A stretch of DNA of 64,000 nucleotides. Origin: Moniliella sp. 'wahieum' (Eukaryota). How positions within the stretch are numbered: the first letter of the stretch is position 1; each line of letters begins with the position of its first letter. This document shows, in pieces, positions 17,007 to 57,385 of this stretch. The notes beneath the pieces are model-generated. The model worked only from the letters and a program-made list of their open reading frames with translations. It was not told where the DNA came from and ran no database searches. A program made the position numbers and the translations under genes. The DNA lies in assembly GCA_003971905.1 (NCBI GenBank), contig RSEE01000067.1, positions 186,001 to 250,000 on the forward strand, read 5' to 3'.

Positions 17007-19384
17007 TGTAACGCGTAACGCGTAATGCGTATAACGCTGCATGTAATAACTTGATGGGAATGGAAGGTATGTATTAGCACACCCTTCCAGAGGTGAATAT
17101 CCTTAGTATCCACATAGACTGAGAGAGAGTCGTATAATGTGGCAGGTGACATGTGACATTGCCGTGTATATGCGCAGATTATGATTTGGTGCCGTTATAT
17201 CGCAACCCAGACAGGTGCGAGGTAGATGTAATGCAAGACATGTGCATGTGAGGACTTGGCGATTAGGTGACTAGCGGCTCTGCTAGTGACTAATGAGTAC
17301 TGAGTAGTGATTATAGTGATTAGTGACTAGGACAGTAGCGATTTCTCTGTCGAAAGTGAGACGCCATGACATGTGACGTGTAACAGATCATCGTGATCGC
17401 TGTGTGGGTGGCAGCAGCACAAAGGTCGATAAGACAGTAGGAAAGGTGTGGCGGCTATTACTATGGCATGACGTACTTGAGAGCTTGAGGCTTGAAGCTT
17501 AAAATTTGGCATGTTGTACTGTCTGACAGCGAAGGAGAAGAAGAGAAGAGAGAGAGCGAAATAGGTGAGGGAATAAGGACATTGGTTGTCCTTTTTGCCG
17601 TTCCATGGCTCCGCTACTTCTGTATCCACAACCTCCTTGCAGCAAGTGGCGTGAAATCCTATTGTGTTGGATCAGAGGATGAGTTGCGATAAACGAGAAG
17701 GGGGAGACGTCCGTCGGCCGGGAGACGGAGATTGAACTCACCTTCGAGAGGTCATTATGTGAAAAGTGGCTATCTCTTCTCAGCTTAAGCTTCATTCGAG
17801 AACCGTATAAAGCTTGAAAAGGCTCCTGATGGAAGAGAGATCTACTCCTACATCCCGTAGAGAGAGGGAGTAGGATACATGTGAGTGTGGTATGATGGCG
17901 GTGTACATGGTACACCGACAATGCGTAGGAGCTACAGTCCTCAAGCTGCAGGCTACTATAAACCAACGGGAGATGACATGGATGACTCTACACACAAAAA
18001 TGGGGGCCATGGTGCGTGACGTAACGGGATGGTGGATTGAAGCGCACCTCCAAGCCCCCAAGTCTCGCATTCTCCGTTCTCGATTTTTTAGAGGGTGACA
18101 TGTGACAGTGACATGCGGCACACAGTACTTCTCCTAAGGCCTAAGGCCTAAGGCCTAACCGGTAACCTGATATACAGTCACATGCACAAAACAGAATTGG
18201 GCGTGATGTGACGACATCTGACATTTGTTCCGCAACATGTACATGATGTGTACGTTGCTGTTATTATACCGAACCTGATAGTAGCTGTGTGTGCTGTAAC
18301 CACGAAAAGTCACTAGTCACATGTCACATGTCACAGCTGCTCGTAATCTGGAAGTCTGACAATGACCTCACACCTGTTGTAGTATAGCCGACAAACGTTA
18401 CGCAAGAGAGGTCTACTGTTTTGGGCCGCGCCAAAATAAGGGGAGGAACCGCTATATTCCTGGCTGTACATTTGGGGTGGTTTTGTTCCGTCGGGAGCAA
18501 TTTATTCAACACCATGTTGGGGTCGCGAGACTCGAGACGTTTCCCCGACTGCTAACTTGAGGTGATGCCGTGAGATGGAATGGACGAACAGGCCACATAT
18601 TAAGTTGGGCCTTGAAGCTTGAAGCTTGGAGCTTGATCTTTAACATTGACGTGTGTACTGTGTGAGATGGACGCCATTTCACCTGCATAGTAGCAGATCT
18701 CAGGGATCTCAGTCTCATATACACCTGTCACAGGTGTCACATGCCAGGTCCTGAGGCCTCAGGGCTCCACCTGCAGATGTATGCCGGTGAGACTTCTGAT
18801 CTCATCTAAAGATCTAAATCCTTTTCCTCAGGGTGATGGCACTGAGACCTCCAGCCACAGACGTATATCTTCCGACAAATGAGATCTTCGATGGAGGGAG
18901 AGGAAGGATCTTAATGGAGATCACACACATTTTCTCGGCCCCTACATTCATTGTATCAGAGGATGCGCTTGGCGCTGATGCATGATGAGGTTGATGTGAT
19001 GAGAGGCCGCCGCAATGGGGCTCAAGCTTCAAGCTTCAAGGAACCCCCACCAAATTTCGTCAATGCATTGTCATATTATTTCTTCTCCCCAGAGATTCTC
19101 AACTTATATCTTTATGACTCGTGACCTTCCGGTGGTCTATGCACGAGTCACGTATTCTAGAAGGCGATGCTGTGGTGTAGATCAATAAGTACTGAGTTTC
19201 CCATCGTTAGAGGTGTGATCCTTTTACAACTTATACACAGTCATATGTTCTACTATGTCATATCCCATTTCTTATTGTCATACTCACACACTCACACGAT
19301 CATCGTGCTCACCCTGAGCGATGGTTGTGAACGAATGATGTGTATGGCTCCCTGAACGCGTAACGTGTAACATGTAAGGCCTCA
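17007..19384. repeat. Cluster of TNA-[4-bp palindrome]-TNA heptamer arrays
   Basis: Examples: 17007-17027 TAA/CGCG; 18133-18167 TAA/GGCC x3 then CCGG; 18308-18335 TCA/CTAG, CATG; 18613-18636 TGA/AGCT; 19022-19040 TCA/AGCT; 19354-19384. Confidence 0.85.
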
Positions 19385-20319
19385 ACCTTTCCGTTTCACC
19401 GCGTGCGGAGCCTATGATATAACTGTGCCAGCCTCCGTTGATCTACGTTCTCATACGTCACGGTTTGGGTCTCTCTTGGGTAATAGCCGCCGATGGTTCC
19501 CCGGTCCATATGGTCCACTGTGTTTCATGAAAATTTATGTGGTGAGACGAAGTAAGCCGGTGGTGGCTGGTGTGGTGGGCCGACGAGATGGACCATGCAC
19601 GTTGGGCGTAGCATCACTGGGGATGAAAGACGAAACTGGGAATGGAAGGTGTCATCGGGAGGGTCACTAATGCGGCGAACCTTTTGATCCGGTGGGCGCC
19701 GTGGCAATGCAGCGGCTTGTGCTGTTGCTACCCGCCCGCGTGCATGTGTTTTGCATATGCTCAACCGGAACCCCCAACCGTGGGCTTTAGCGTTGCCTCC
19801 ATCCGTTGTTCTTGAAGTGCTGATGGAAACTGCGGGGATGCCTGCCGCGCCCCCATCCCGCTCACACAAAAGAGTGTGTAAGAGGGAGCACTGTCCATAC
19901 ATGGGTTCGAACAGTTGGATGCCAATTCCTGCAGAGACTGACCCTGCAGCTTCGCAGGTAGAGTTGGAGGCTTCCGACACGGCTGAGTGAACTACATATG
20001 TTCGGTAGGCTGATGTCGCTTGTTCACGATCTGGAGGCCCCAATTAGGTCGCCACAATGGGCACACGGAAGCAAGAGCATCGGCTGTGGAGGGCGATGGA
20101 CCCACGAAGTGGCCCTCAAGCTCTTTCTCCATCCGTCATCAAAGAAAGGTCAGGTGGATGGAACAAGAAGTGATAGGACTCAATAAAGGAGCATATCTGG
20201 TTGATCAGGTTCGGGTACACCAGGGAATCCGTCCTTGGTTCGTCCCAAAAGGTTAGTGAGGAAACTGCAACGCTTCTGCGGAACAGAAAGAGAAAGAACT
20301 GATGCGACGGTTGGAGCAA

Positions 20320-20640
20320 AGGGAATGCTACAAGAATGCCAAGTACCAGTAACGCACTTAAGGGCCATTCTGCCTCTTGCGGTGGTTCTGACAAGGCATG
20401 GACACTTGTATATCACCAAAACGGCCAACAAGAAGTAGTTTGACCACCCTGGAAAAGGGTTACTGTTGAGCTGTATCATCGCAGATGGTTCACTGCTTTC
20501 AAACACACGTATACAACGCTCATTAATCATTCGTATATCCTCGTGCTATCCATATCTGCTTTCCGCGGAGCCAGCGGGGCCTGAAGACCTTTTCTCTGAT
20601 GGCCACTCCATTTAATGGTATCGTCCTAATTGGGTTGGCA
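20320..20640 (+). mobile_element. Decayed 3' fragment of an RLE-type non-LTR retrotransposon (copy C; may extend upstream to ~19900)
   Basis: gaatgctacaagaatgccaagtaccag...accaaaacggccaacaag aligns with copies at 21225 (+) and 41354-41725 (-). Confidence 0.55.
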
Positions 20641-21224
20641 CGAACAACTGCAGTTAGTATACCCGAGAGATAAGAAGCAGGTATATAATAGGCGCAACGT
20701 TTCTTGGTCCTTGTTCAAGTTCCTCTGCAAATGCTAATGCAACAGGCTGAGTTTCTTCACGGGCCTCTTAGCTGATCAGGTATACCATCTCAATGCTCTT
20801 CACTGTTGATCCTGTTCTCCTTCCCTCTACCAGTGCATTTTTTGCTTACTTCCCTCCGTACTTGATTTCACACACGCATCGCCCGACCTTTACAATGAAC
20901 ACACTCATTCTAGTAGGACTGTGGAAAGTGTAGAAGAAGAGTCGACGCTCAACGTTCAACCAATATAGTGAATCCGTGGGGGGATGGACAAAATGCATCC
21001 GTGTATGGGGTTTCATGGATTTTACTAGAGGATCACCGGGGCTACGGCCCGGCGTGTGTTCTAGGCCCCACCGTTCCTCCTTTCACTTTTCCCCCGTAGC
21101 CACCGTTCCACACCATGTCCTGATTTATCGGCCATGTAGCCCCTGGCAGCGCTGACGCGGCACTTGAAGTGGGTAATGCGCCGAAGAATGGAACCCACAT
21201 ACATCCCTCTCTATATCTTTATTC

Positions 21225-21590
21225 AGAATGCGACAAGCCAAGTACCAGGGACGCACTCAAGAGCCGTTTCCCCCCCTGGTTTTGACGACGCGAGGATACT
21301 ACGGCACCAAGACGGCGAGCAAGTTGTTTGCGCATTGGAAGGAGTTGGCTACTATGTCTCAGTGGAAATGGTTCCTCGCTCGGATGTCAACCACGTTCCT
21401 CCGTGTCCACACGCGCTTCCTAGGGTACGGGACCGGATGGCGTGAGCCGGAGGGTCCTGATATCCTGGCGATCCCCCTGGTTCCTTGACCCTGGTGGCGC
21501 CCCCAAGTATAACTCCCGCAAGATGAACGGTTAATAGGTTTAGACGTAGCGTTCCCCCTGTCCCAGCCTTAAGCTCTGCCAATGAAATGG
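21225..21590 (+). mobile_element. Decayed 3' fragment of an RLE-type non-LTR retrotransposon (copy A)
   Basis: Clear nucleotide homology to the reverse complement of 41354-41725, including the 3' UTR; translates KYQGRTQEPFPPLVLTTRGYYGTKTASKLFAHWKE..WFLARMS. Confidence 0.7.
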
Positions 21591-22349
21591 ACGTGTTCTA
21601 GGTTCCTTCGCCCTGGTGACTATATACACTTTTTCTCATTCTCATATATATATACTTACCCGCATTCAAAAGTATAGGTCTTCCACCTTGTCCATTGGTT
21701 TTGCTCTATTGGTTGCTTCATTGGTTATGTGATCGATCGGAAGCTGACGGATATCTTATCCACCCCCACTGTACTTGCTCGGACTCCGACTCATAAAGCA
21801 ATGGGGTCTTCATCTCCTATGTCCGCCTAAGACAATCGATACTTGTTATACTGCGTAACAAGTCGCCACAGGATGTATAGATCCAATTACAGGGCATGTA
21901 TTGCCTACACACTGACTGATGTGCTCATTGATGAAAGTACGGTGCTACGGCAACCCCAGAGACTCGCTCAACCGTGGTGTGTGAAATGCATGATACATGT
22001 CCATGGCTCTCTCCCCGCAGAGGCAAATCTCTTTTCGTGGTCAGGGCCTCCATTGAGGAATGCTTTAGAATGTGGTTCGAGCTGCGTGCGCTTCAACGTC
22101 ATGCAGGGACTAGCGTTGAGCCGCATACTATGTTGGACATTGGTGGCGGCGTTTTGAAGGGGTGTGTGTATGTGATGGGTATGACCATCGCATCTCCCAC
22201 CGGCCCATCAACTGGTGAGGCTGAGGCCCTCAGGGCCACTGTTTTGTAACTTGAAGTCCACCGGCTGCCGGCTCCTTATAAATCCCAAACATCGTCTCAC
22301 GGGGTGGATCGCTCGGTTTTATCGCAGGCAAAAAAAATCATTTGTTCAC

Positions 22350-25345
22350 AAAACGTCTTAGGCCTTAGGTCTCTGTAATACACGATTTTTGACCAACCGG
22401 CGTTGCCCCCAATGCGGTGGTCTACCCAGTACGGTGGACTATAATCGGTTTTGCTGAAGACTTCAAGTAACCAACTGCTTTGCCATATATCCCATCCTCG
22501 AATCTGAGTTGGGGCGAAGCCCACAACGATATAATTATGTACAGTGTGATTAGTAGTGACTAATAGTCACTAACGACCACCAAGTAGTGGTCACTGGTCA
22601 AGGACTGAAGACGATTGGGGCTACCGGTTTAGAATTCGCGTATCTCCTCCTTCGTTAGGCTAGTGTAAAGACGTTGGGACAGGCACAATAATATACATCC
22701 CCTTGTCCTTCATGTTATTGTATCTTCATCCCCTTCGAAATGTCTCTCCCCCAACCATCTGCCGGCAGAGATTGGCAATTGTGCATTCGATAAGCAACTC
22801 AATAAGCCGAATAGGCCATGCAGTTCCACTCTCAAGGGCTGGCAGGGCTTTTGTGTGGGGGGTAAGTTCTGCTCCACAGAAGAGGTACCTGGGGTACCTG
22901 AGGGCTGCCACACTGACCACACCAACCGCGCACTGAAGAGATCCACAGCTTCCAAGCTTCAGCTCCCCCAGGCCTCCTATTCAGTGTGCAAACATGCCTG
23001 CGGGTATGCACAGTATATATGCCAGTTGCAGGCCAATGATTAATGATCGCTCACTGTACGGCCACTGCCTGGATCGCAAGTTGGTCGTCACAGTCACTGG
23101 CTACTTCGAAGTCAGTAGAAGCGTTTACATGTTCAAGCGTTAATGCATAATGCCGGACTCGAGATCTGCTCGACCACTGGGGTCCTAACCTAATGCTAGC
23201 CATCTGTTCCGCCTCTGTTTCCCCTGACTGCATCCCCCCACTTGCCCCCACAACTTGGTGCTACTGGCATTAGCACTTGGCGCGTAGCGCTCATTAGCGC
23301 TTTCTTTTCGTGTGTCGCACTTACTATTCTGGGCAGCACAACCCACAACCACGTGCCGAAAGCTCCTAAGGCCTAAAGATCATGCATGGCCCTTATGACG
23401 TACGCGTTTCCGATCGACCACTCGGTCATGCATCCTGCCCCAGGCACTAGGCACCATAGATCATCGATCACCGACCATTAATCATTGCAGGATACGCGTC
23501 ACATCGCCGGCGGGATTCCAGGTATCACTGACAGACACGCTGAGTACTGATCGCAGGACAAGCACGTCACGTGTGTGATGCATGTGATGGCACAGGCCAC
23601 GCGCTGTTGCTCGCCACCACCCAACATGCAATCGATGTGGCAATCTATGACATGCTGTGTGCACAGAGTGCCAAGTAGTAAGTACTCAACAACTGAGTAC
23701 TGAAGGTACTGAAGCTTGAAATTGAATAAACTGAAGTTGAAGTTGAAGCTTGAAGCCGTACCATAGCTATACTGAAGCTTGAAGATGGTACCCGCTAAAA
23801 ACCGAGCGCCTCCACAAATCTTGGATCAATCCTTGACACACCTGGGTGATCGACGGTACCGCAGAGAGTCTGGCCAGGGCAGCGATCCGGCCGTCTCAGA
23901 ACTTATAAAATACGTGCATGCTCAGTGCGCTCAGCTCAAGTTGAGCCTCAACGCTCGACGTCACGCGTCAGTAATCGATAATCATTCTTTTGGTCCGCCT
24001 GTGCATGTCGTCCATACGGCGTTTCAAGCGCCTCTTCAGGAGCTTTTGGAGCTTGGAGAGCTGTGGCGCATTGCAAGTGACATGCATGTGACGCGCGTGA
24101 CATATGATGGCATCCATGTGATCTGGACGCGAATAGCAGGCGTTTTTTTAGGTACGAGACCCGAGAGATTGTGACGTTTTGTAGGTGTGATTTGGGGATT
24201 ATGCATGGGTGTAACATGTAAACGTTAACGTGTTACATGTTAACGTTTAACGTTTAACGTTCAACCCGCCCAATGTTGGTTGGCGCGCGGTTGAGACGCG
24301 TTGACGGGCTGATGTTGAAGGGGTAAAGCTGTAAATTTAAAGGTGTTGAACGTCGACGTTTTTTTATACGCGGTTAACACGCCGGTTACACCAGTTACAT
24401 GTTACACCAGTTGTACATATGGCATGGTTGCCGATTCCAGTTGCACGACTCCGGTGGCGTTTTGAACGTTGAACGTGTTGGACGTGTTGATCGAACGTTG
24501 AACGTTGAATATATTCATCGTTGATGCATTGATGCATGATGGCGACGAAGGGGGCGGATATATGATGCATGGCGTCCATGGTGTGCATGGTGGCGGAGTT
24601 CGGAGAGTTGTGAGAATGTGAGATCTGGGAGGAAAGCGCACAGGTACGGTGGCGACTGGGAGAAAAGTATCGAGCCTCGATTGAGTGGCCATCGATCAGG
24701 TCCAGGCCTCAGGCCTCAGGCCTCGTAACGCGTAACCGGTAACCAGTAACTAGTAATAGTAACCAGCAACCCTCAGACTGGGGCTCTAACGGGTAAATCT
24801 TAAGCCAACAACAACGGGCACAACCAAGTACATCTAAACACAAACTGGCTTCAAGCTTAACATAGCTTAACTAAGCGATTAACCAGCATGGGCAATCGGC
24901 ACGCGTCATGCGTTAGCGCACTGTGTCACACGTAGCGTCACCGAATCATTAATCACCGAGCCACCGGGTCACCGGTCACCGGTCATCGGTCTTCGGCCAC
25001 CGGGCACCGGTCAGGCCGGTCACCGGTCACCAAAGCCAATCTATTCAGTCACAACTTGTGGTCACCGTCCACCGTTGCCACTGATGGCGGGATGGGATCA
25101 ATTCGATCCATGTCAGTACGTCACGCGTCAGTACTCCGTACACTCAGGATCCATTTCGCAATGGCACGTTAGAGCGGTGCTGGGCGGTGCACGCGGTGCT
25201 CTGGGGTGCTGCGAGCTTCGAGACAAAGGAAAGTACGTAGCGCAGATAATCGATGCTGCATACTGCAGACGCAGTCTTAGGACTTAGGACTTAGTACTTA
25301 GTGCTGGTGCATGACATGCATGACATGTGATGCACAATGCATGAT
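22350..25345. repeat. Dense cluster of TNA-[4-bp palindrome]-TNA heptamer arrays upstream of the cyclin gene
   Basis: 24212-24263 has 8 TNA in perfect 7-nt phase; also 24689-24762, 24944-25030, 25277-25345, 23367, 23461 and 23694-23782. Confidence 0.88.
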
Positions 25346-26063
25346 GCCCGCCGCAGGGCTCTGTCTCAGGCCGCACGACAGGAGACCGAAGCAGTGCGGC
25401 GAGTCTCGCGCACTCAACATATATCGGTCGCTTCCCCCCGCCACCGTCTTCTTCCATCTGTCTTCTTCTGCCCCCCGCCCTGGGGCCGCCAGCACCGATC
25501 CACGCCCACTTGAACCTTCTGTCCGTCCCCAGCCTCTCACCATCACCATCGCCATCGCCATCACCATCACCATCCTCCCCCCCCCGCTCCGTTTTTCCCT
25601 GCTCCCACCGCTCGCGCAGCCTGAGCGTTACTGGCCTGCCACCGCGCCCAACGGTTCCAGCTCAAGTACTGCTCGGACCCTACTCCCTTCCCTGCGGGCC
25701 AACGTTCCGTGCTACTGCCAGCCCCTGTTGAACGTTAACTGCGTGCCCTATCCGTGCCACTCCGGCCTGCTCTCTGGCCACTTTGCACCACACCCACTCC
25801 ACCCCCTCCACCCCAACTCCATCATCCCGACCTCACCCCGGCCAACTATGTCCCCCACACCCACACCCACGCCCATGCCCATGCCCTGATTATCACCATG
25901 ACAATTCCTATGCACACGGCACCGGCCCAGTTTTCCTACCTGCCGATGCCTTCAGGCCACGCGCCGCATCCGTCTTGCCTCCGTCCTTGCCACCGGCCCC
26001 CACCCGGGCCGAGGTGCCACCTGCCCTGAGCCCCCGTTTATGTCGCGCCAGTCTCAGGCCGTG

Positions 26064-27319
26064 ATGGAGGTCGATGCCAACTTCGAGGAGCGCGCGGTGC
26101 CCATCCAGGTTGATGGCTCCTCACCTCGCTGGGTATGCCACCCGCCTCCAACCCCCTATGACGAACACCCTCCAGGCGGGATTGAGCAACTGTATGGCTT
26201 CCGCGCCCTGTCGGAGCTGTGTGAAGCCGTCATCACCGTCCTCTTCTCCTGCCCCCCCGTCGTTAGCCCTCCAGAAGGGGCATCCCGTCCACGATCGAGG
26301 ACGAACCCTTCGGGCGAAACACCTCGGTTGGTGGAGTTGTGGCATATGCGTTGAATCGTACCCGTCTGCCCACCCTGGTCGTTTACCAAGCCCTCTACCT
26401 TTCAAGCGCCTTAAACAACGCTTTCCGTCGTCACGTGGCCCAGCGGCCAACCGGCTCTTCATCTCCGCTTGATGCTTTCGAGCAAGGCGATTTGCGACGA
26501 CACATACTCCAACAAGTCCTGGACGATTGTCGGGCAGGGCTGTTCAGCCTAAAGACATCAACACTATGGAGCAGGAGCTGTTTAATTTCTGGGGCACCGG
26601 GTCAACGTCTGCGGAACAGCTTCTCGGTTTCGCCGATCTGTTGGAACGAGGGTGTCTTGATGAGGCACTCTACATCCCTCCTCGCACTGCCGCACCCAGT
26701 TCGGCTGCGCCCCCACCTATGGCCCACCTTGCTCCTGACTCAGGCACCACCACCTTCACCCCCGAACCGTCGCCTACTAAGCTAACCTGGCCCTTCTCCA
26801 CCCGCTCCACCCGCTCTTACTCTTCGCCCCTTCGACCTTTGGGAGCTAAATCTACCTTGGCCAACTCACTAGCGAACCCACCTTTCTCCCGTCGTCAACG
26901 CTCTAGAATCTACCACCACCGCCTCCCCTTCCATGTCTTGGACTCAGACCGGACCAGCAACCAACCCCTTTGTCCAACTGCATGCGCCTCGTCTGGAGTC
27001 ACCCTGGAACCACCCCCTCCTCGCCTCGTGTGTTGCCCAGCCCGACAAGCTACTGTCCTCCGAAAACACGTTTCCCCCCTTTTGTCGGCCGAAGTTCGGG
27101 CGATTCCTCTTCAGGTTCACTTGGTATGCCCGTAGGGCGATCCCGTGCCTCGTCCGCTTCCACCCCCATTGTGGAGGTGGGTTGATTCGTACCCCTTCGT
27201 CGGTCGTGATGGAACATGATTATCATTGGTTCCACCACCGTGGAAAAGCCCCCCCACCTCCACCTTTGCCGTTGACCTTGCCCCTTTCCTTTGATCCACA
27301 GGCCAACCCTTTGGCCTAG
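26064..27319 (+). CDS. Pho80/Pcl-family cyclin (Pcl12-like); start may lie further upstream (~25900); frameshifted
   Basis: VAYALNRTRLPTLVVYQALYL..KRLKQRFPSSRG..NRLFISA..SKAICDDTYSNKSWTIVGQGLFSLKDINTMEQELF cyclin box. Confidence 0.85.
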
Positions 27320-44240: not shown

Positions 44241-45089
44241 CTCGTTCGCGTTTGCCACACTGTGATGACACTAATGGGGGACGATTACGGGGTATACGCG
44301 ATGAACGGATACGAGAGACGGTTGAGAGTTTCTGCAATGAACATCCTGAAGTTGGGGAGAGATGTGAGTATGAGGAACGTCGCGCGCGTTAAGTGGCACA
44401 TCACAAGCTTCAAGGGACCTGTAAGTCTCATCACCATTGGCGTATGGTCTGGTGTGGTCTTGGGCGTTGCACCATGCGCCAGCCCCGTCGTCCATGTGTT
44501 CCGAAGGCCGAATGGAACAGGAACTTTCCATTCACCGCGGCGAAGGCAATTCCCCCTTTTGGCACGTACACAGATTTAGGTACGCAGCACAGCCGTTCAT
44601 TTGAAGTAGGGGAGGATACTGGGCTGTGTACACGGGTTGATGACGTTGCTGAAGCCCTGCTTCCACTCCCATCATGAATCATGAGAAGGCCAACTTGCCG
44701 GATTTTCAAAAACACGTAACTAGTCCCGGCCGGACGCTCCTCTGCAGAATCGGATTAGGATCTCAAGGATTAGTTTCGGGTGGAGAACCTCTGGAGCTGT
44801 AAAATGCAATGGGGGTGATGGTGGTTGCGATCTAAGCTTTGCCCATCCGGCTCCCTGCGCCAACAGCCTACGTACTACGGAGTGACCGGGACCACGGTGA
44901 GGTTCCAACATCCTCCAACTGAGAAGTGGGCATGATAGTAGGAGAGAAGTATCCCACGCATTCTACTGCGACCTTCACAATAGCTCATTAATAGCCATCA
45001 TGTAATAGTACTACTACCGACGGCAGTTATTAACCGGCAAAAAAGGGAGGGCAAAAAGAGAGTAGGGGTTTAAAGGGCGTTCTGACCTT

Positions 45090-47070
45090 TCTCTCGTAAC
45101 GCGTAACGCGTAACCATGTTAGCATCTGAGATCTGATGAAAGACTGGATGAACCTGCCAGTGCAGAAAGGAAATCGCCGGATGCACCTCACTACGGCCTC
45201 ACGCGCACGGAAGAGCTGGCCAGGGCTGACCGATAACATGTAGCACCCCATATGCAGGGCCTCAGTAGTACTTGATGCCAATAATTAATGAGGCCTGAGG
45301 GCCTGAGGAGACGTTAATGATGTTCCTTAGTATTGCGGGCGGGCAATATAATGATCGACAACAATTAGTAACCTAGTAACCAACTAGTAATGTAGCAGCG
45401 AGTGTGGCTCCAGTGGCTCCATCATATTGCGTGCAGCATATGCCGTGTGTGGAGCAGAATCCCTGTATAGTCACTAGTTACATGTCAAGCGTTGCGCTTT
45501 ACGCGCGTTACGCGTTACGCGTTATGGAGACAGCTGCATCACATATCGCGGTGGCGCCGTAGTGGTGTTAAATTGTTGGAGTGTGGTGGCATGTGGCACC
45601 ACTTGGTGTGATGGCTTGATGGGCCATATCACTGCCAAGCGGACCTGGCTATAGAGTTCCGCGACTCGCCCACTCCGGATTGGGTACCGTTCGCCCTCGT
45701 TCCCCTCCTTCCTCTTCTCCTGTTGCATGAAGGTTGGACTAGCGTCAGTACCGTCAGTAGCTTGCGCGAATCTGACTGTTCCAACCCTGCACAGTGCAAT
45801 CGTCCTTAGCTTGGTAGCGTAGCTACTTCTCAGTTAAACGTTAACGGACAACCGCGGTTCTGGGCTCTCCCTAGCACTTCCCTAGCACCGGTGAAACCGC
45901 GATTTATCGCGCTCACCCATTGATCGCCTACAGTCTAGTGCTTCGCCTAGCCCTCATTCTTTCATGGTAGCTACCGAGCATCTTGGCCGGCTTCAAGATT
46001 GAAGCGCTTCACGCTTCTCTTTGTCGGTATCTTTTTCTGCTTTTCTTTTCAAATGCGATCAGGAATGTTGAACGTTGAACATGGTGAAGTCGGGGGGAGC
46101 TGAGACGCTGAAGAGACAACTGACGTGGGGGAAGGAGATGGACGGGGAAGGAGCTTTTGGGCCAGCTCAATCGGCTGTGACATGTGTGACATGTGACTGA
46201 TCGCACAGGTGATATCTATACTGGACGAGACGTCCACACGGCCGATAACATGGGGACCGGTGAAATGGCATGTGCCCCAATCCACAGACTGGGGTTGACG
46301 CGTGACGTTGATGTTGTGCATGACGGCCTCGGCCAGCGATGTAATAGATCTGCAAGAAGTCCATTTCGGGGGCTCGATTTGTTGCTGGGCAGGAAACGCA
46401 GCGCGCGCGTTACCTTGAGCTATCGACTATCCTTCTACCCCTGGCCTTATTGTCCAGCAAAGCGCACTGGAACACTGTGCAGCCACCACACAGGCGCCCT
46501 GCCGCTGCGCGGCCGGATGCAGTAGGGTTGCTCAGTGATCGTCACCCCTGGCACGGGCGCAGTGCATGGGGGCTCCTCTTCAACACGGCTACTGCCCCAT
46601 CGATGATGCGTGGTGGCCATGACGTGCATGACTATGCGTGGGCGAGGGGAGGCAGACGCAGACAGCAGCGCCGCCGCCCCCACATGTGCCCGCATGGGCC
46701 CGCTCCCACTGAGTCCTGACGACGTACCGAAGAGAGGAGCAGCTCAGGCTGCGGAGCCGCTGAGGCGTGGAGCTTGAGGAGCACTCGGGAGCACCGCGCA
46801 CCTGAGCACTCGCTCGCACCCCGCCTTGGCCTGCCTTGGCGGCATGCGTTGTTGTCCCGCTGCCCCCGCCCACCCGCCATGCACCACTTGCCCCGTGCAG
46901 CCTGGCATGGGCGCTCAGCAAGGGTCCAGTGTGGGTGTCTTCGGCACCCTGCATGCGGCGCCCTGCCTCCTGGCGCAGCACCTGCCCCATCCCCGCCGCC
47001 CGCGCATGAGACAGGCGCCATGCTGGCGTGGCTGCCGCTGGATTCCTGGTTGATCGATGATCACATTGAC
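45090..47070. repeat. Cluster of TNA-[4-bp palindrome]-TNA heptamer arrays upstream of the sedolisin gene
   Basis: 45097-45113 TAA/CGCG; 45280-45300; 45471-45524; 45835; 46069; 46178; 46296; 47051. Confidence 0.85.
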
Positions 47071-47206
47071 CGATCACGACGATCGGTGACCAGGGCCGGT
47101 GATCGGCGTGCGGCATGCACACTGCCCCATTCAGCGGCGGCCGGCAGCCTTAAATAGGACAGGCCGCCGGCCACCGCCGCTGCTCGGCTTCGTCTCCTGC
47201 CGCCAC

Positions 47207-48918
47207 ATGCTCTTCCCCTCCCTGCCACGTCCGCCGTCCTCGGCGCCAGCTGGCCGCCGCGCGCGCGCGTCCACTACGCCCCGGCCAGCGCCTCGGTCAA
47301 GAAGATCCCCGCCGCCCGCGGCGAAGCACCCACCGAGCCCTACCGGCTGACGCTCCACCTTGCTTCAGACCGCATCGACGCGCTCGACGACAAGGTCACC
47401 CAGCTGGCTGCCGACCCGGAGGGCCAATGGCTCACCCCCGACGAGATCAAGGCGTACCTGTCCCCTCGTCCTGCCCATAAGGACGCTGTCACTGCCTGGC
47501 TCGCTGCCAACGACATCACAGATGTCGAGTGGAGTCCGTTGGGTGACCGAGTATCGTTCAACAGCAGTCACAAGGATGTGGCCACCAGGTTCCACGCCCC
47601 GCTCGGCCTCTACTCTCTGGCCGGAAACGTGCGCGTCTACCGCTCCGAGTCCTACACGGTCCCGGACGCGTTGGAGGATGCTGTGGAGAGCATCACGCCT
47701 CTCACCTCTTTCTTGGTTCCCGCCCCGCGCCACCGTCTTCGTCATCGCTACACTCCGGACGAGCTAGAGAGGGCAGAGGCTTCGGCCAAGAAGAACCCGC
47801 AGGATGCTCCGACACGTTTGTCACCCTGTCTTGCATCCGCAACCATTATGGTTCGGCCAACTTTAAGCCCGTTCCCAGCAACGAGACGGATCTGCTGATC
47901 ATTGGGTTTGGCTCGGATCAGCAATTCCTTCCCTCGGACCTGACTTCGTACTTGCAGCAGTACCGTCCCGACCAGGCCAACTATCAGGTTGCTACCTCCA
48001 CATGGGCATCGATTCGGCCACCGGCCCAACAAGTGGGGATGAGACCATGCTGGACCTGGAGTTGGCCGTAGGCATTGCCGCTCCTCTCAAGGTGGACTTT
48101 CTCTTGAGCGGGGTGACCGGTGACGATCTGTTCCTCAAGCCCCTGGAGAAGGTACTGGACAGCGGAGCGAAGCCGGGGGTGATTAGTGTTTCCTACGGCC
48201 CGGCCGAGTCCGACTTGACCAAGGATGATGCGCGGCGGTGGTACAAGACAGCGTTGGCACTGGCGGCACAAGGCACCACGACCGTCTTTGCCAGTGGAGA
48301 TTCCGGTGTGGACGAAACAAACGAGAGCTGCAAGAATGGTATCAAGCCTCCCTGGCCTACCTCTTCTTCCATCCTTGTCGTCGGCAGCACCACTGGCACC
48401 AACCCCGAACACGCCACCAACCCGCTCACCGCGCCCGAAGAGAACATTGCTGTCTGGTCCGGTGCGGGCTGGAGCAACCTCAACGAGGTACCCAGCTGGC
48501 AAGCCAACATCTCTTCTGCCTACTTGAACGCTCTCCGCACAACCTGACCAAGTATGTCAATCAAAGCGGACGCGGGATCACCGACGTCTCTGCCTTTGGC
48601 GAGGCGATTGCTGTGGTGGTGAACAACGCCACCGAGACGGTTGCTGGTACCTCGGCCTCGGCGCCCATCTGGGCCGCGCATCTGGCGCTGGTCAACTCGG
48701 CTCTACGCCAAAAGGGACGCAAGACGGTTGGCTTTGTTCACCCTCGCCTCTACCGCGATGGCCAGCAGCAAGGCGCGGTTCGGGATATCGTCCAGGGCAC
48801 CACCTGTGGCTGCCCGGACCTGAACCTGTGCTTCCCTTCCGGAAAAGGGTGGGACCCCGCGACAGGTTTGGGCGTGCCCGACTTCAAGGGTATGCTTGCC
48901 TTTTGGGGCGCGGCTTGA
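47207..48918 (+). CDS. Secreted S53 sedolisin / tripeptidyl-peptidase with pro-domain (frameshifted)
   Basis: Signal-like start; pro-domain WLTPDEIKAYLSP; catalytic ETMLD, SGDSG, GTSASAP; Ca-binding GWDPATGLGVP. Confidence 0.9.
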
Positions 48919-49449
48919 GCGGGCCAAAGCGGGTAGGTGAAGAAGCATGAAAGGGGAATAGGGAGATCGGTCTCTAATCTATCCATCATCCGTCGCCTTG
49001 ACCGTGGGTGGGCAGCTTGCTAGACTTTCCACGCCGTTTCTGGCCACTACCCAACTTCTATTATTCTCCCCCGAGCTTCGTTCTCTCCTTCACATGGACA
49101 GTCGTATTTGTACTTTTGTGGGTGCATGAATATGCTCTGCAGGGTTGAACGTTGATTATGTTTGGTATCGTATGATTACTGCTCGTACAACTCTCTCTGG
49201 GAGACCGAATGTACACCCCGTCGGTCTATACTGTGCTCCGGCCATCCCTGGCACACAACCAAAATAATAGAGGATACCAACGAAAGAGATTATGATTGGT
49301 TGGGTTGGCCAATTCGTGTGAGGTATGTGCAGGACTGAGAGAATGGTGGTAGTGAAGTGTGAAACCCGTGTATGCAAGTGACCCAAGAAGAATTGGTGAG
49401 ACCACGCCAGTGTATACCCATAGCAAAGTGCCGTATGCGACGGCGTCCA

Positions 49450-51500
49450 AATGATGAAAACGTTTCCAGAGAGTGTGTGTGAGGCAACGGAAAGGCGTTA
49501 CAGCATCTCAGCTGATTGCACCCGACCCGCACCCTGCTCCCTTCGGTCCCAGGAGGGGCCCCAGTTGAACTGCAGAAGCAAGTTTCTCTGTTCCGGAAGC
49601 GGGAGTGGCTCCCCCTCTTCCACCTCCTTGCGGGAAGGCGTGTCAAACGTAGTGACCAAAAGCGACGCGCGACAGGCCGTGTAGGGCAACAAGCGGACCT
49701 GGTACATGGTTAACGCAACTCCTGCCAACAGAGGTGGGTCCCCGGTACGGTCCGTCTCCAAGTCTGGTGCAATAGGGGGAAGCATAGTGCCCTTCTCCTT
49801 CCCTTGCTCGTCTTCCAGACGCACAGGGCCAATTGGTAGGCAACTGGCCCGCAACTCTGCAGGCGAGCGCGCATGCTTCCAATCGAGAATGATGGGACAC
49901 AAGTACCTGCTTCGAAACCAAGGTGGTACGAGCTGCGGGAGCGGTTGGCTGGTTTGCGCTGGTACCTCTTCCCGTCGTACCTCCACCGAGGTAACAATAC
50001 TGGCAACCAGGCCCGGCCTTGACATACGCACCACTTACTGTCCAAGTTGAGTGTGCTGTCCATCCCGGGTACCAGGCGAACCGACGCGAGCCAAGCAGGA
50101 CCACGGTGCACGTGTCCGGTAAACGCATGAAGGTAATTTTTCAACACCCAGACGTGCGGCTCTTTCTTTTGGCCTCTCCACCAGCGGTCTCCAACAGAAG
50201 CGTCTCACTGGACGGATCGAGGTAGAAGGAAAGGAGCTGATGTGAGGCGAGGTCGCAAAACGTCTGGACAAGTGCAGGTTGCTCGCCCGGATGGGAGAGG
50301 GTAAGGTCCCACCCAGACGAGGGAGGAATTGGGCCCTTCCCCCGTCCATCCATCATCTCGCTAAAAGACCAACAAGGTTCCCCGTTCCGGTCCAGGGCTA
50401 CCACGTCCCGCTGCCCGGCATGATCAGTACAAACTTGTCGTCAAACCGAATTGGAACGGGGACGTTTTCCAGGAACAAAATCTCTCGGGTGCCTGGACAA
50501 TAGGTCTCAGTATTGTGCTTGCTAGGCAAATAATTGGTACGTACCAACCAAGGGGGCGACGGACGTCGTACTGGAGTCCCATCTTAGCTCTAGGTCAACG
50601 TGGCCCGTAGTGAGATTGTGCCCTACTAGGAGAGCACGATCTGGATCCCTGTGCGACTGGGTTAGTGTTCCCCCCACGGAAAGTAAGACGGTTACGTACA
50701 TGAAGAAGAGCCATGGGTAGTGGAGCTGAGCCGGTGGGGACTCAAGGGAGATGGTATTGGCCAACGGGACATCGCGCACCCATTCAAACCCAAGGCAGGA
50801 CTCCACTTGGCCAGGGTGAAACGTAGATTTGTGTACGGAAGCCCACACGCGTTTTGTGTACCCAGTAGAGATTTCCCTTGGAAGAAGAGGCGCGTTAGCT
50901 ACTCCATACCATACCTGCATTGAAGATTGATCCCCCGGAGGACGGAAGACGTACAGCACCATTCGATTGCCAACCAATCACCACTCAGCACAGCGCCACA
51001 GGCGGTCACTTGACCTGGACCGGGCTGGTGGAAGGACTGTAGGACCACATGGGAAATTCAGTTCGTGCGTCAATCAAGTGCACCGTGGGCATTTGGGACG
51101 AATGGGAAGGGTGTTGGGCACCAGAAAAGCTTCTTGCTCTGGAACCATGAGCCACGTCCGATCCCACCCTTTGCTGGTCAGGACGCGGACTTGAGGAACA
51201 GTGCGCGCCAAAGGAGCGCCCTTCTCAGAGCAGAAAGTAGACGGTCTCCAACGAAGGTGTATCCGAACGGTCGCTCAAGTTGCAGCATGGTTGATCAGCT
51301 GGAACCAAGATGCCGGGGGCCGTTCCAGGCCGGCCGCTTTGGCTGCTTGGTCTAGGGTGTGTGGAAAGAAGGAAGATGGAGGATTCGAACGGCTAATGCG
51401 TGCCAGAATATTCCTCCCTTAGTAGTGCATTCCATTCTGTCATTCAGGGTCAGAGCTCTCCTTCCACAGGAAAGCACGAAAACGCAAGGGACGCACCTCG
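49450..51500 (-). CDS. Hypothetical protein, possibly with an F-box-like N-terminus (fragmented; limits approximate)
   Basis: Long protein-like ORFs 50522-50977 and 49498-50034; EWNALLREE..FWHALAVRIL near 51430. Confidence 0.3.
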
Positions 51501-52164
51501 GCACGTTGCAGCGAGACGAAGCAGATCGAGCGGGCTTAGCACACCCGACGTGGCTATCTGCAGCGCCACCTCAACCGGGAGGTGGGCCAAAAGCCCAGGG
51601 AAGTTGGGGTTGGGGCGTAGGACAGGGCTTCTATCGTAGTTGTTGGAGCATCAAGTGGCGGCGGGGGCTGGGAGACAGTGATGGTGATGGTGAAGGATGG
51701 AAGGCAAGAAGGCAGTTTACTCACAGTATAGGTATGCACGGATACGAATCCAGTTCAAACCGCTTAACCAACGCGTCCAACGCCTCGATCGACAAAATAC
51801 AGGTGATATCAGCTCAGCACTCGCGACTCACAACCCACATGTCACAGTTGTATAGTGCCGCCGCGCGTTGAGTTCGGCTTTCCCAGCACCGTTGTCGTCT
51901 CAGCCTCAGGAAAGTATACTTTGTCGAGCCTAGCGCCTCGCGCTTAGCCTCCGCTGCGGCACTCAGTCGGGGCGCCAGACGGGAGGTAATTAAACCCTGC
52001 CCAGCTGTGAGGCATGGCGGTGGCGCAGCTGGGCGTAAGCTGGCTCACGGGGAGCGCGGGAAACAAGTGGCCCGAGGCGGACGACAGGTGGTGGGTGGCA
52101 CTTGACGCACTTTTTGTTGCTGCGCGGCTTTGGCGGCTGCGGGCTGTTCAAATTAAACCGAAAC

Positions 52165-52325
52165 CGGACTGAGTACTGACGGTACTGACGTACTGACGCG
52201 GTAATCTAATCGATGATCTCGATCCTTGCTGCAATTTGAACGCTGAAATCAGCGCTGAGGCGCTCAGCTGAAGCTATAATTGAAATCTGCAGCTACCCAC
52301 TAGCCACTTTAAGCTTTAAGCTTTA
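52165..52325. repeat. TNA-[4-bp palindrome]-TNA array cluster
   Basis: TGA GTAC TGA; TAA TCGA TGA; TCA GCGC TGA; CT TTA AGCT TTA AGCT TTA (52307-52325). Confidence 0.85.
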
Positions 52326-52799
52326 CTCCACACTGCCGGACTTTGAAATTTGAGCGGGCAAACGGGGCGCGCAAGCAATCAATTTTGAATGTTTGGCATG
52401 CCAGCCGTGCCCACCGGAACCCGCCGTGCCCACCGGACCCCACCGGAGCACCTTTCTATGTGAGCAGAGTGGGATAGGTACAGTTGCCAGAGTGCGACTT
52501 GGGAGCACTCGCGAACCTATGGATCAGCTGCAAAGCAGCCTTCAGATCTCAGACAAGGCGTGAAGGCATAGTGGTGAAGTGGTGAGCCACAAGTCTTCAA
52601 GCAACGTCTGAAGGGAAGGAGAAAGGAGAGAAGGGAGATGTGGTGGAGCGCGGAGCAGGGCGTGAGCGGCCTGCGAGCGGAACGCTTCCGCTCGCCTAGG
52701 CGAGCGTCACCGATCCATTGAGGGCCCGCGCAGGAGAACCCTAGCAGTACCCTCTAACAACAGTCGGGTTAGGGCGAAGACAATTGGGCTAAGCTGGGG

Positions 52800-53500
52800 A
52801 TTTTGGGGTGGACCGGGAGAGAGGGTGTTCTTGTTGCGAGAGCACAGTGCGGCATGTTGTGTATCATAGTCACGGCAACTTGCATTCGACACCACATGAG
52901 CTTATTACGAGCTGGCTATGAAGGAAGAGGACGATACCCCGTCTGGAAGGAAGCCTGGGCGGACAGACGACAGGATTATAAAACCAGGAGCCTTCCGAGG
53001 TTACTAGCAATGTGCAGAGGTGGACCGTACGTTAAAAAAAGAGGCAATAGATTCGGGCACAGAGTAGGTAATATGAGGATTGCGCGCCGGAAGGTGGCAC
53101 ACACGTAGTAACCGCAAAGCGAGTAGAATGCTGCTAGAAGGGGCGGCTTCGACGGTTGGAGGAAGGTACTAATGCCGAGAAAGTATACCAGAGACGCCCT
53201 CAAGAGCCGTTCTTCCGCTGGCCATAAAGGACGCGGGGGTATCATGCCCCCAAAAGGGTCAACAAGGCATTTAAGCACGGAAAAGCCTTGAGGACCTTCA
53301 TTGGAGATAGCTCATCGCTCGCCTGTCGACACTAATGGCATACACGATTTGGGGAAGGACATATTAGCGGAGCCAGAGGGCCCTGACCTCTCTGCTCTGG
53401 ATTCTCTTGAGGTCCTCAAATTGGGTCGATTCACAAGACATAGGAGAGAGCCAGTCTGATATAGAGATGCAGCATTATGTGTCCCTGCCTTCATATGCTT
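52800..53500 (-). mobile_element. Possible decayed non-LTR reverse transcriptase relic
   Basis: LLAAFYSL..RRAILILPTLCPNLLPLFLTYGPP followed by SSVR(P/Q)G resembles the non-LTR RT NAFNS..P.L...YG.P..GVRQG region. Confidence 0.35.
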
Positions 53501-54070
53501 CTGAATGATATGAATGCAACCGTAATAGGATGCACGACAATTGAAATTAGGGATATCAGGGGCCCTCTCCGAGCTTTTTACTTTGGGACTATAGCTCATG
53601 GAAGGGAAAAATGAGCTTATTGACGGGTAAAATGACGGAATGAGATGTTCCGAAAAGGGCTACACGATAACGTGTTACACAAAATCCACTATTATATTGT
53701 CTGTGTTTCTCTCGCCACAATGCTGCCACACAAGTATAGAAAGAGTGTAAAAGTGTACGTGCGCACGCATAGGCGCACTGATGACTTTTTAGAGGAAAAC
53801 CATGACCACCACAGGCGGACGGTAGTATACAGGAGGGAGAGAGGCAGCGCGGAGCATTGCCTTCAAAAAAGGAAGCCAAAATGACGGGAGTCACCAAGAA
53901 GAGAACCCAAAAGCAAAAGGCTGTAGGCGTCAAACACCATACCAGCTCTCAGCCACATCAAGAGCTCATCCTCCTGAGTGGGAAGAAGAAGTAAAAAGCA
54001 AGGAAAGAATGGAAGTGAGTGATGGGAGGCACCATTCAACTGAAGGAGGACATGCACTGCAGGCAGCCGC

Positions 54071-54627
54071 TTAGTTGAACGAGACGATGTGCACACCGTA
54101 GATCTCCCTGGTCCAGAGGGGCAAGAGCAGAGAGACGGCCTTGGTCGCGTCAATGTGCTGCAGAAGATGAAAGAGAGAGGTCAGAATGTGTGTCTTCCCA
54201 AAAAGCAATAGAGAAAATTGATACTCACGTGAGCGTCGCACCCGCGCGCACTGGTCAACGACGGTGGCGGCAACCATCTTGCCGTTGCTGCAGAGAAAAA
54301 AGAGGGTAAGTATCATGTTCGGAAATGCTGTTGGACCAGCAGTCAGGATATTGGTCGGACGGAAATACGTACGGTGCAGGTGAACCGTGGACCCGCAAGG
54401 GTAGGGAGAGTCGGCCGCAACGGCGACGACCATGTCCCAGTCGTTAGGGGTAGGGCCACCGCAGGCGGGAGCGTCAAGCGACGAGCCGGCGTACAAGTCA
54501 GCATTACCATCGAGGTAGTCCTGGTACCCGCGCTTGCGGGGGCCTCAGCCTCCATCTTGGGGATGGCAGCGGCCGAAGCGACGGCGGCGGCAGCGGCAAT
54601 GGTGGCAAAGATAGTCGAGAACTGCAT
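54071..54627 (-). CDS. Small secreted RlpA-like/expansin-like (DPBB) protein; two introns
   Basis: Signal MQFSTIFATIAAAAAVASA, Kex2 KR, PACG..DMVVAV..CGSTV..NGKMVAATVVDQC..HIDATKA. Confidence 0.8.
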
Positions 54628-55259
54628 GGTAAAGAAGAAAGCAGAAGCGAAGAAGCTTGAAGAGGCGAAGAGAAGCTGTGTGGTGAGGAAATAGGAATGG
54701 TATTCAAAACGAGAGGGGTTATATACCGTTTTCGTCGAGCTCTCGTTGAACAAAGAAGGAAGGTGCACCCCCCCCACCCCCAATACAGAAGAAGAGCTAT
54801 CCACTAGTGTGTTTCCCGCCGGTATGGCTTGTTCTGCTTGACGCAGGTGTAGCGGTCCCAGCGAAATCGAGTTGTTGTATGGTTAGTATAGCCAACAGCC
54901 AAAATTTACACTCCCCCCCCTCCTCTCCCCCCCCCTCCCCCCCTCTCGCTTCAAATGAGGGGGGGAAGGGGGGGGGTGGACCCTATGAAAATCACTGGAT
55001 TTGTGACCGCGGCACCAGGGGAGAGGCACGGAGATATATAACGCCAAGATCTGCGAATTGGGGCGTCCGGCTCCCACCGGCCACACCCAGGCACATCAAA
55101 TAGAGCTGCAATCGTCTCCCCCCCGATGCGGCAAGTATACAGACGGCAGATGGCATCGCACGGCTTCTGTGTTTCCAGGAACTATGACCCCCCCCCTCAT
55201 TTCGCATGGATGGCAACAAGGCGGCTACTAAACCATCACACTCATCGAAGGCGTTGACC

Positions 55260-57385
55260 TCGTTGAGCGCTCAGGCGTCAACTTGAACGTTCAGACGTTT
55301 GAACACTGGCCCAGTTCGCGAGATGATCGATGATCTGGCAGCCACGGCGTGCTCGTATGTTTGGTTTTCGGTTGGCTATTCAGGTTATTCCGGTTACCGG
55401 TTATTGGGGTTCTCCCTATGTTCTTCCTGGCTCTCCCCTTGCCGAGCCTCAGGCCTCAGGAACAGCCATCTGCGGCAGGGGGACACGTGCCGGATAGGTA
55501 TTGTGGCTTTCCCTGCCTTTCCACATGTGGATAGGAACGGATACTAACCGAGTGTCCCCTTTTCTATGCCGAACACACCACGAGACACCCTGAGATGTGG
55601 CACCCTGACACACCTCGCGTTCCCTGCAACGGGTGCAGTGCCTGCCAAGTAGCTGTTTTATGCATGTCACACACGAGGGTGCCTCATGTGGTGCATGATG
55701 CACGATGCATGATCCTGATACACACGTGGCAGGAACTGGAAGTTGCATTGGGTAATCCACGGTTAGGTAACCGGTTGTGCAGTCATGCATCAGGTATCAG
55801 GCGCTACGCCAGCCAAGAATCCTCATCGACCATCGACCATCCACGTGCGTTTCCAACCATGTCGACCTTGCCTGGGTGGATATCGCCACCCCCCCAATTT
55901 CTCCCTCGTGTCGGCATATATAGGCCCCTTCGATGGTGAGTGTGTCGGCGTAGAAGACCAAGAGCACGCAGTTGATGCTGTATTGCATTGCACATGAGCT
56001 ACAGAGGCCAGAGAAGATTTCTGCCCTCCAGGAAGGAATATTGGAAGGAAAATGACCCGGCTTGCTACCGGCGCCACTACACCAGTGTAGGCCACAGCTG
56101 GACAAAACTGTGGCGCGATGGCGGCAACCGCCGAGTTCAGCGTTAGGTGACCGACCGGTCGCCGTTGATGCTGATGCTGATCGATGGTCGATGGTCGATG
56201 GTCGATGAAAAGGTGTGCACAACACTTCTTTCCGCATCACATACTTCAGCGAACGAGCGATGAGGTGACGAAGGTGTCGACCACCGAATTCATTGCAGGC
56301 CTATAACACACACATTCAGCCGAAGACGTTCTAAACGTTGAGAATGTTTGCTGGGCATACTGAACTGCCGTGTACAACTACAATTCGGGGTTGCCCTGCT
56401 GATAAGATCGTTCATTTCGACGGCGTCGGGGACATGGTTGTGAAAAGGGATTGTTTGTTTGTGTGGGCTCGTGAAATTGAGATACAGATGTTGTTGAGGC
56501 ACAAATGTCGACGCCTGCTGAACATGTGGAACAGGTTGAACGTTGCATGTGATAATGGCACTGACGTTGATGTTCACGCGCTCATCACGTTGACCACGTT
56601 GACTGTCGTTGACCACGCCGTACACACGCGTATCCCCTTCAATGTTTTTGTTACCTCACATCACATGGCGCTTGTGGCTCACAATGCTCACGCAGGCTTA
56701 CGCTCACAACCCATTTTTGCCGAACAACTGAGTATATCGTCGCTCGCCGAGTCTCCTCCTTTGCGGCTGGTTGCAACAAGTTAATGACTTTTACACACGG
56801 AGCTAACTCGGTCCGCACCCCCCCGGTTGCGGATTTGCCGAGGGAAGGGGGCTTAGTACAGAGGAAGCGGGTGGCCATATGGCAGAAGATGGTGGCTCTA
56901 TGCCATCTGGTCGTATCGATCCCAAGGCCTGATGCGACGCGACAGCCTCCCCTGAACGTTGAACATCAGACCTTGCATCTCAGGCTGAGAATCGTAGTCG
57001 GCCTCTCCCTGGTTTTTTCGCCACATTTCAAAATGAGCAGGTGCCAGCAGGTGCATCACACGTGCCACATGTCAGCACTGTCAGCAGGCTGTACGAAGTC
57101 CCCTGGTTCGGATGCGTTGCAATTGAAAGTTTGCATATGTCGGCGTTTCCAAGGGCAGCAAAGGATCATAGCACAGGGTTATATGCAGACGGCGTTACTA
57201 TAGACACGAAGAGGCCACCCCCCCCCCTGTGTCGAAGTGGGTCTCGTTGTAAGGAGGCCATGGTGCCACCAGCACAAGAATTATGGACGCTCTTCCCACT
57301 GGTATTCAGCTGGATATAGCTGGGGTGGCTGTGAGGCCGAGGATGAAGAGTGTGTAGGCCATTGATGAGACATAACGCGTAACGC
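55260..57385. repeat. TNA-[4-bp palindrome]-TNA array cluster
   Basis: 55264, 55284, 55324, 55394, 55449, 55692, 56178-56208, 56953, 57373. Confidence 0.8.
55945..56120 (+). repeat. Diverged dispersed repeat, partner of 44080-44240
   Basis: See 44080; shared blocks in the same order. Confidence 0.6.

Follow-up and report, generated by a model that had tools for sequence, protein, structure and literature searches.

The DNA analyzed here, referred to as the window, is a stretch of 64,000 nucleotides (nt) from Moniliella sp. 'wahieum' (contig RSEE01000067.1, positions 186,001 to 250,000), and all coordinates below count from its first letter. It is nuclear DNA of a basidiomycete from the Ustilaginomycotina. 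The open reading frame (ORF) of a malic enzyme has 60% identity to its counterpart in Tilletiaria anomala, and the top named relatives of a GCN5-type ORF are from Malassezia (64–71%) and Meira (75%). Genes are found at 0–16 kb, 29–44 kb, 47–51 kb, and 59–64 kb. Those recognized encode a malic enzyme, an E2 lipoyl protein, a helicase, a kinase, a methyltransferase, an OHCU decarboxylase, TBP, a sedolisin, a short-chain dehydrogenase, and GCN5; tRNA and Rfam scans of the window gave no match, and a protein search found no longer relatives of the helicase ORF. Between the genes lie blocks of GC-poorer non-coding DNA, and these blocks carry the subject of this study, arrays with a period of 7 nt in which the trimer TNA alternates with a palindrome of 4 base pairs (bp), here called the filler.

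We confirmed that these heptamer arrays are real and far beyond chance. We counted 110 instances of the motif T.A-[4-bp palindrome]-T.A (any N) across the window, grouped in 91 chains with strict 7-nt spacing, compared with 8.1 ± 2.8 occurrences (maximum 15) in 100 dinucleotide-preserving shuffles. The interval from 17007 to 57385 contains 106 of the 110, running from one at 17009 to one at 57373. Four non-coding blocks at 16.5–25.6, 44.4–47.1, 52.0–52.8, and 55.2–57.5 kb, 14.9 kb together, hold 91 of them. In these 14.9 kb, about one tenth of the 898 TNA trimers are involved in a motif, and motifs cover 5.7% of the bases; Tandem Repeats Finder also reported many period-7 arrays in the same blocks. 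When the same trimer was required on both sides of the palindrome, TNA gave 87 occurrences, while the other 15 XNY classes gave 3–10 each (192 in total). Same-trimer TNA pairs at distance 7 had a palindromic filler in 87 of 134 cases, and repeats of TNA-containing 5-mers peaked at distance 7 (57–59, versus 3–24 at distances 5–14).

The filler is drawn from 15 of the 16 possible 4-bp palindromes, and TATA alone is unused. The N of adjacent trimers is the same in 87 of the 110 occurrences and different in 23; the differences, classified by eye from the hit list, were 14 transitions, 5 G/C complements, and 4 others. TGA and TCA together make up 57 of the same-N occurrences, and TAA and TTA the other 30. 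A preference for G or C over A or T as the central base is also seen in 46 reconstructed ancestral sites (G 20, C 16, T 6, A 4). The original prediction, which was made from the letters of the window and its ORF translations, had described intergenic TNA-[4-bp palindrome]-TNA arrays in the same blocks, a trimer that is essentially always TNA, and at least 13 palindromic fillers, and the counts bear out all three statements.

The filler follows the adjoining dinucleotides. According to the flank rule, a site XY-TNA-ZW has as its filler either the reverse complement of XY followed by XY, or ZW followed by the reverse complement of ZW. The rule was obeyed in 79 of the 87 same-N cases, on one side in 62 and with both flanks agreeing in 17. 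Other central trimers gave on average 1.9 one-sided cases (maximum 5) and 0.3 both-sided cases, and shuffled sequence gave a mean of 0.27 cases (maximum 2), so that scars obeying the rule are in roughly 300-fold excess. In eight arrays with two filler types, which were read by eye, the left filler fits the left flank in all eight, and both fillers fit in five. The prediction had stated this rule for most cases and had argued that neither slippage nor a single binding motif would be sufficient; both points held, since 15 fillers follow one grammar that is set by the flanks.

We examined the unit event in 77 isolated two-copy events. In 32 of them (18 left, 14 right), the period-7 match runs past the core on a single side, and there by exactly 2 nt. 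The unit event is therefore not a plain 7-nt tandem duplication, in which 4 or more further bases would have to match. Only two plain 7-bp duplications were found at TNA, both of them register artefacts within arrays, whereas the other trimers averaged 8.9. As read from the strings, the unit event is the change of XYTNA to XYTNA·Y'X'·XYTNA, where Y'X' is the reverse complement of XY, or the mirror image of this change. The two-sided array at 18135 illustrates its origin. The ancestral site, CCTAACC, is not palindromic, and the units grew from each own flank, indicating that palindromes arise de novo from either flank.

An added dinucleotide that is the reverse complement of the one beside it points to a hairpin-capped end that was opened off its centre. 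The geometry of cutting and rejoining was explored by enumeration on 46 one-sided isolated events. The models combined a duplication of k = 3–10 bp in all placements, a nick offset of o = 0–2, hairpin-opening positions q and r of 0–4, counted 3' of the hairpin tip, and direct strand ligation. The sole symmetric fit reproduced 46 of the 46 events and had k = 7 (nnTNAnn, starting 2 nt before the T), o = 0, and q = r = 2 or 3. The last two values yield one and the same string, since T and A in TNA pair with each other. Asymmetric models, including the 5-bp duplication, accounted for 24 or 22 events each. The events divide into 24 left and 22 right products, and this balance is explained by the k = 7 model if a heteroduplex resolves either way. 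Under this model, the TNA end should also furnish no palindromic nucleotides, and the numbers observed were 0 from that end and 92 from the opposite end. If hairpins were opened 5' of the tip and then filled in, +11 products would result, and none was seen.

A further prediction of the k = 7 model is a +9 class, in which one hairpin is opened at its tip and the 7-bp duplication is joined by Y'X' or W'Z'. Ten full 7-bp duplications spaced by 9 nt were available, and seven of them fit, against 12.5% expected by chance (p = 4e-5); the other trimers averaged 0.5 and the shuffles 0.05. A +8 class, examined by eye, followed the rule in six of seven cases, but chance alone gives about 44%, and hence this class is weak evidence. 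At 52168–52198, the +7, +8, and +9 outcomes lie next to each other, which is the scatter expected of end joining. The fit to all 46 events supports the original prediction of a hairpin-type cut-and-repair process at an odd-length, TNA-centred target, which adds 7 nt each time and regenerates its own target.

From this geometry, we propose that a cut-and-paste DNA transposon, itself absent from the window, left the heptamer units as footprints of its excision, a reading to which we give a probability of roughly 0.7. The element would insert at nnTNAnn and produce the 7-bp target-site duplication XYTNAZW. Upon excision, the transposase would nick exactly at the border between element and flank, and each flank would be sealed as a perfect hairpin. 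Hairpin opening 2 nt 3' of the tip is known from work on Artemis; such an opening of each hairpin would leave the self-complementary 3' overhangs ZWW'Z' and Y'X'XY. These overhangs would overlap fully, and their strand-by-strand ligation, with no nucleotide lost or gained, would give a +7 heteroduplex that could resolve to XYTNA-ZWW'Z'-TNAZW or to XYTNA-Y'X'XY-TNAZW. Both of these products are strings actually present in the sequence, in equal numbers. Each scar would double the TNA target and create a perfect 7-bp palindrome with fully cohesive overhangs, so that repeated visits would lengthen homogeneous 7-nt arrays, and slippage probably contributes some array copies. As a gain of 7 nt breaks reading frames, scars would survive only in non-coding DNA.

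The scars appear to be young. Only 10 fillers are near misses, one base off the palindrome predicted from the flank, compared with 79 perfect ones, and therefore the scars are likely of recent origin; the age is a rough estimate from four filler positions, with a divergence of a few per cent at most. The process may be ongoing. Decay of CpG was considered as the main source of filler diversity and rejected, as a CpG transition was found in just one of the 10 near-miss fillers.

Hairpin footprints with palindromic (P) nucleotides are textbook knowledge. Canonical hAT elements duplicate 8 bp and nick 1 nt into the flank, as known from work on Hermes. Transib and RAG duplicate 5 bp and nick exactly at the border, and RAG-type hairpins are opened about 2 nt 3' of the tip, giving 4-nt self-complementary overhangs. 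Scars of Tc1/mariner elements consist of a fixed number of added bases flanked by the duplicated target. PMC5499845 describes flank hairpins formed by hAT, Transib, RAG, and the MULE Muta1, and MULE duplications of 8–10 bp. In a fungus, Ac/Ds footprints with P nucleotides have been documented (PMC5873905). As described there, they keep the target-site duplication, take short palindromic nucleotides from the flank, and are repaired by end joining, and in these respects they resemble the scars in the window. They differ in that their palindromes are odd, centred on the complement of the single element-adjacent base, and accompany an 8-bp duplication, while the palindromes here are even (ZW-W'Z') and accompany 7 bp. 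Moreover, the known Ac/Ds footprints are scattered single scars, whereas the scars in the window form pervasive arrays.

Several known types of element were compared with the scars and set aside. For a canonical hAT element with an 8-bp duplication (nTnnnnAn), no k = 8 model reproduces more than 24 of the 46 events. A nick 1 nt into the flank is not favoured either, since no model with o = 1 or 2 is among the top-ranked fits and the palindromes are even; canonical hAT excision also predicts a complemented N, but the adjacent trimers share their N in 87 of 110 cases. Neither a hAT transposase nor short inverted termini were found in the window. The border nick (o = 0 is needed), the perfect flank hairpin, and the 2-nt opening, as deduced here from the strings, are like those of RAG and Transib, but their 5-bp duplication is disfavoured because k = 5 fits 24 or 22 events and because the TNA end gave none of the 92 P nucleotides; no element with CAC..GTG ends was seen in the window. 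A MULE would duplicate 8–10 bp instead of the 7 bp found here, and its long inverted termini were not found in the window. The TNA trimer recalls the 3-bp TNA/TWA targets of PIF/Harbinger; however, the gain is +7 and not +3, the k = 3 models do not fit, and TNATNA (+3) is not enriched (36, compared with a mean of 117 for other trimers). A filler derived from the element, as in Harbinger or Tc1/mariner, would be constant, but the filler here is set by the flank and takes 15 forms.

In Basidiomycota, 7-bp duplications have been reported for hAT7 in the Pucciniales (rusts) and for Kyakuja/KDZ elements in the Agaricomycotina, in PMC12730594. That source gives the termini of Kyakuja as 5'-CA..TG-3', without inverted repeats. 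These elements share with our model the 7-bp duplication deduced from the scars, but the groups named for them there are the Agaricomycotina and Pucciniales and not the Ustilaginomycotina. No KDZ domain was detected in the scanned ORFs of the window. Tentatively, the scars might reveal for the first time how excision proceeds in vivo in a basidiomycete transposon lineage with 7-bp duplications, be it Kyakuja/KDZ-like, hAT7-like, or an undescribed superfamily, with a RAG/Transib-like border nick and self-propagating scars.

A number of observations weigh against the transposon model. The flank rule is broken in 8 of the 87 same-N cases, and the complementary N in 5 neighbouring trimers is not a prediction of the model. 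Identical pairs of nnTNAnn 7-mers flanked inverted termini (at least 10 of 14 matches) in 0 of 1760 cases in the window, and nnTNAnn pairs bounded by CA..TG were at the chance level in the 64-kb window (8 of 2566, versus 449 of 86318 for other 7-mers). Pfam scans of 246 ORFs of the window (12 + 138 of at least 110 amino acids and 96 of 60–109 amino acids) found no DNA-transposase domain, in agreement with the original prediction that the responsible enzyme is not visible here. For the shorter class, 96 of the 191 ORFs in non-coding blocks were scanned, mainly at 16.5–29.6, 44.1–46.7, and 51.8–52.8 kb, and the only mobile-element domains among all scanned ORFs were rve and RVT_2 of Ty1/copia. 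The transposon itself is deduced from its scars, and the hairpins, the nick position, and the ligation are deduced from the strings alone. Since a scar can be recognized only if it keeps the grammar, and footprints of the deletion type are invisible without an outgroup, the tidiness of repair is overstated and the proportions of the outcomes are biased. Variant units that lack TNA have been amplified (56181–56207 and 55824–55841), and thus slippage, or a relaxed target in palindromic arrays, must add copies. Finally, the choice of strand, seen in which flank has its palindrome kept, correlates with the bases bordering the 7-mer. In the orientation of the retained product, the outside bases of the 46 events were pyrimidine/pyrimidine in 21 and purine/purine in 2 (p = 7e-5), and the 5' base outside the 7-mer was C in 23 of 46 compared with a background of 26% (p = 4e-4); this bias is post hoc, found on scanning 25 positions. 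It is suggestive and not explained by the model, and hints at an oriented step, such as a difference between the two ends of the element, or a nuclease or ligation that depends on the sequence.

We considered other explanations for the arrays. The original prediction had written each event as a 5-nt duplication plus 2 P nucleotides, and an element or nuclease that duplicates 5 bp (TNAZW or XYTNA) and adds 2 P nucleotides on one flank would correspond to it. As a description of the string this stands, because the 79 scars can all be written as 5 + 2 + 5, and a 5-bp duplication together with border hairpins is typical of Transib/RAG. The hairpin pathway is described in PMC5499845. As a mechanism, however, it requires two mirror-image models that cover 24 or 22 of the 46 events each, it would have the TNA end supply as many P nucleotides as the other end where 0 and 92 were observed, it leaves unaccounted for the +9 scars, in which the duplication spans all 7 nt (7 of 10), and it places TNA off-centre, at the edge of the target. 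We therefore regard a 5-bp duplication as unlikely. A process without any mobile element is similarly improbable. Here, a host or domesticated nuclease or transposase would cut nnTNAnn with a 7-nt stagger, and fill-in, hairpin capping, and rejoining would follow. The window holds neither an element nor a transposase, which is in its favour; we know of no enzyme of this kind, which counts against it. A domesticated hAT transposase of yeast, Kat1, does make hairpin-capped breaks, as described in PMC4763223. But a 7-bp duplication followed by hairpin capping amounts to two separate reactions at the same site, while the cycle of transposon insertion and excision supplies both, and a staggered cut with fill-in alone would leave 7-bp duplications of the plain kind that TNA sites lack.

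Replication slippage, or template switching at quasi-palindromes, might both create and expand the units. Slippage can expand an array once two units are present, and the amplified variant units without TNA at 56181–56207, as well as the length and decay of some arrays (24953–25031), are what it would produce. The first events, however, took place at unique, non-repetitive, and non-palindromic sites such as the one at 18135, and there is no microhomology for switching back, as XY and W'Z' are different in each of the 46 one-sided events. The effect is limited to TNA among 16 trimer classes, one grammar governs 15 different fillers, and the filler depends on the flank, unlike in a microsatellite or minisatellite made by slippage. 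Slippage or template switching is thus very unlikely as the origin of the units. It is extremely improbable that the arrays serve, under selection, as cis-regulatory or protein-binding sites, or that they are an artefact of assembly or sequencing. Their intergenic location would suit the former, and their ANNNNT hexamers are palindromes of the type that dimeric proteins might bind; yet the filler is set by the adjoining dinucleotide in 79 of 87 cases and there is no common motif, and units with ordinary point mutations and decayed copies are not expected of an artefact. Excision footprints of a transposon with a 7-bp duplication remain the reading that we prefer, and the arrays and scars discussed in the text are listed in Table 1.

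Table 1. Scar-bearing blocks, heptamer arrays, and minor scar classes in the window
Feature	Position	Remarks
Main scar-bearing non-coding block	16500..25600	About 60 of 110 motif occurrences in bins spanning 16–26 kb
TAA-CGCG-TAA-CGCG-TAA	17009..17025	First array
cc-TAA-(GGCC-TAA)x3-CCGG-TAA-cc	18135..18165	Two-sided array; left fillers from left CC, right filler from right CC
ag-TCA-CTAG-TCA-CATG-TCA-CATG-TCA-ca	18310..18333	Left filler from AG, right fillers from CA
TGA-AGCT array	18613..18636	4 units, one with TGG
TCA-AGCT-TCA-AGCT-TCA	19022..19038	
TGTGATG + CA + TGTGATG	23574..23592	+9 scar (7-bp duplication + 2 palindromic nt)
Further +9 scars	23699, 25310, 45743, 46176, 52175, 38970	
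TTA-CATG-TTA-(ACGT-TTA)x2-ACGT-TCA	24233..24263	
(TCA-GGCC)x3, then TAA-CGCG-TAA-CCGG-TAA-CCAG-TAA-CTAG-TAA	24703..24756	Compound tract
TCA-CCGG array	24953..25031	Longest array, about 10.7 units, 78% match; older, partly decayed
Second non-coding block	44400..47100	Includes TAA-CGCG x2 (45097–45113) and TTA-CGCG x2 (45508–45524)
Site AC-TGA-CG	52168..52198	Repeatedly targeted; +7 (GTAC filler), +9 (CG-GT-AC), and +8 (CG-T-AC) adjacent
TTA-AGCT-TTA-AGCT-TTA	52309..52325	
Fourth block	55200..57500	Last array TAA-CGCG-TAA, 57373–57382
CCA-TCGA variant array	55824–55841	TNA lost
TGG-TCGA variant unit	56181–56207	Three copies between TGA units, within the fourth block

In the main block, no ORF of at least 60 amino acids matched a Pfam family above the curated cut-off, and there was one sub-threshold R3H match (E = 0.003). 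The inverted repeats found at 16.5–25.6 kb are just pairs of the arrays themselves. One such pair is formed by the two AGCT-type arrays at 18610–18628 and 19023–19041, which lie 394 nt apart and make a 19-nt perfect inverted repeat. The bases flanking this pair, checked by eye, showed no duplicated target sequence, and the two arrays are probably of independent origin with the same filler.

Other repeats were observed in the window. A Ty1/copia retrotransposon at 3936–9810 has a coding region of three ORFs (4492–5769, 5773–7500, and 7785–9527) and long terminal repeats of 217 nt (3936–4152 and 9594–9810). The repeats are 100% identical, and therefore its insertion was very recent; the element is without any flank-rule scar. 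A (TGCCAT)x17 tract with 97% identity is found at 62532–62633 in a minus-strand ORF with the GCN5 bromodomain, downstream of the domain. In the frame of this ORF it would encode alternating Met-Ala, or alternatively it may be 3' untranslated region or intron. A pure run of 25 C at 57741–57765 and a C-rich run of 31 nt at 54913–54943 are both non-coding. A 45-nt tandem repeat rich in proline codons (2.1–2.4 copies, 60468–60571) lies in a gene region that also has a WH2 motif.

No description of TNA-centred heptamer scar arrays was found in the full-text literature, a search outside of which subscription journals largely lie. Nor did the literature searched contain a case in which iterated footprints pervade intergenic DNA as heptamer arrays that combine even palindromes with a 7-bp target centred on TNA. 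As the scars are young, sites should differ between strains and would be useful markers. Counting of scars would serve as a detector of past cut-and-paste activity where the elements are rare or gone, and the process would be a source of short palindromic intergenic tandem arrays other than slippage.

If the transposon model is true, a single genome sequence would record, in thousands of natural experiments, how hairpins are opened and ends are joined in a basidiomycete. Where the hairpins open, which strand is chosen, and in what proportions +7, +8, and +9 products form would be readable from it, and with them the duplication length, the target, and the cleavage geometry of an unseen transposon. 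On the more tentative reading in which the scars are self-propagating, each excision would double the target and make a cohesive palindrome, so that scars would become runaway hotspots. That reading would also mean that the birth and growth of minisatellites can be driven by a transposon, and that about 6% of the intergenic DNA here would have been remodelled in this way.

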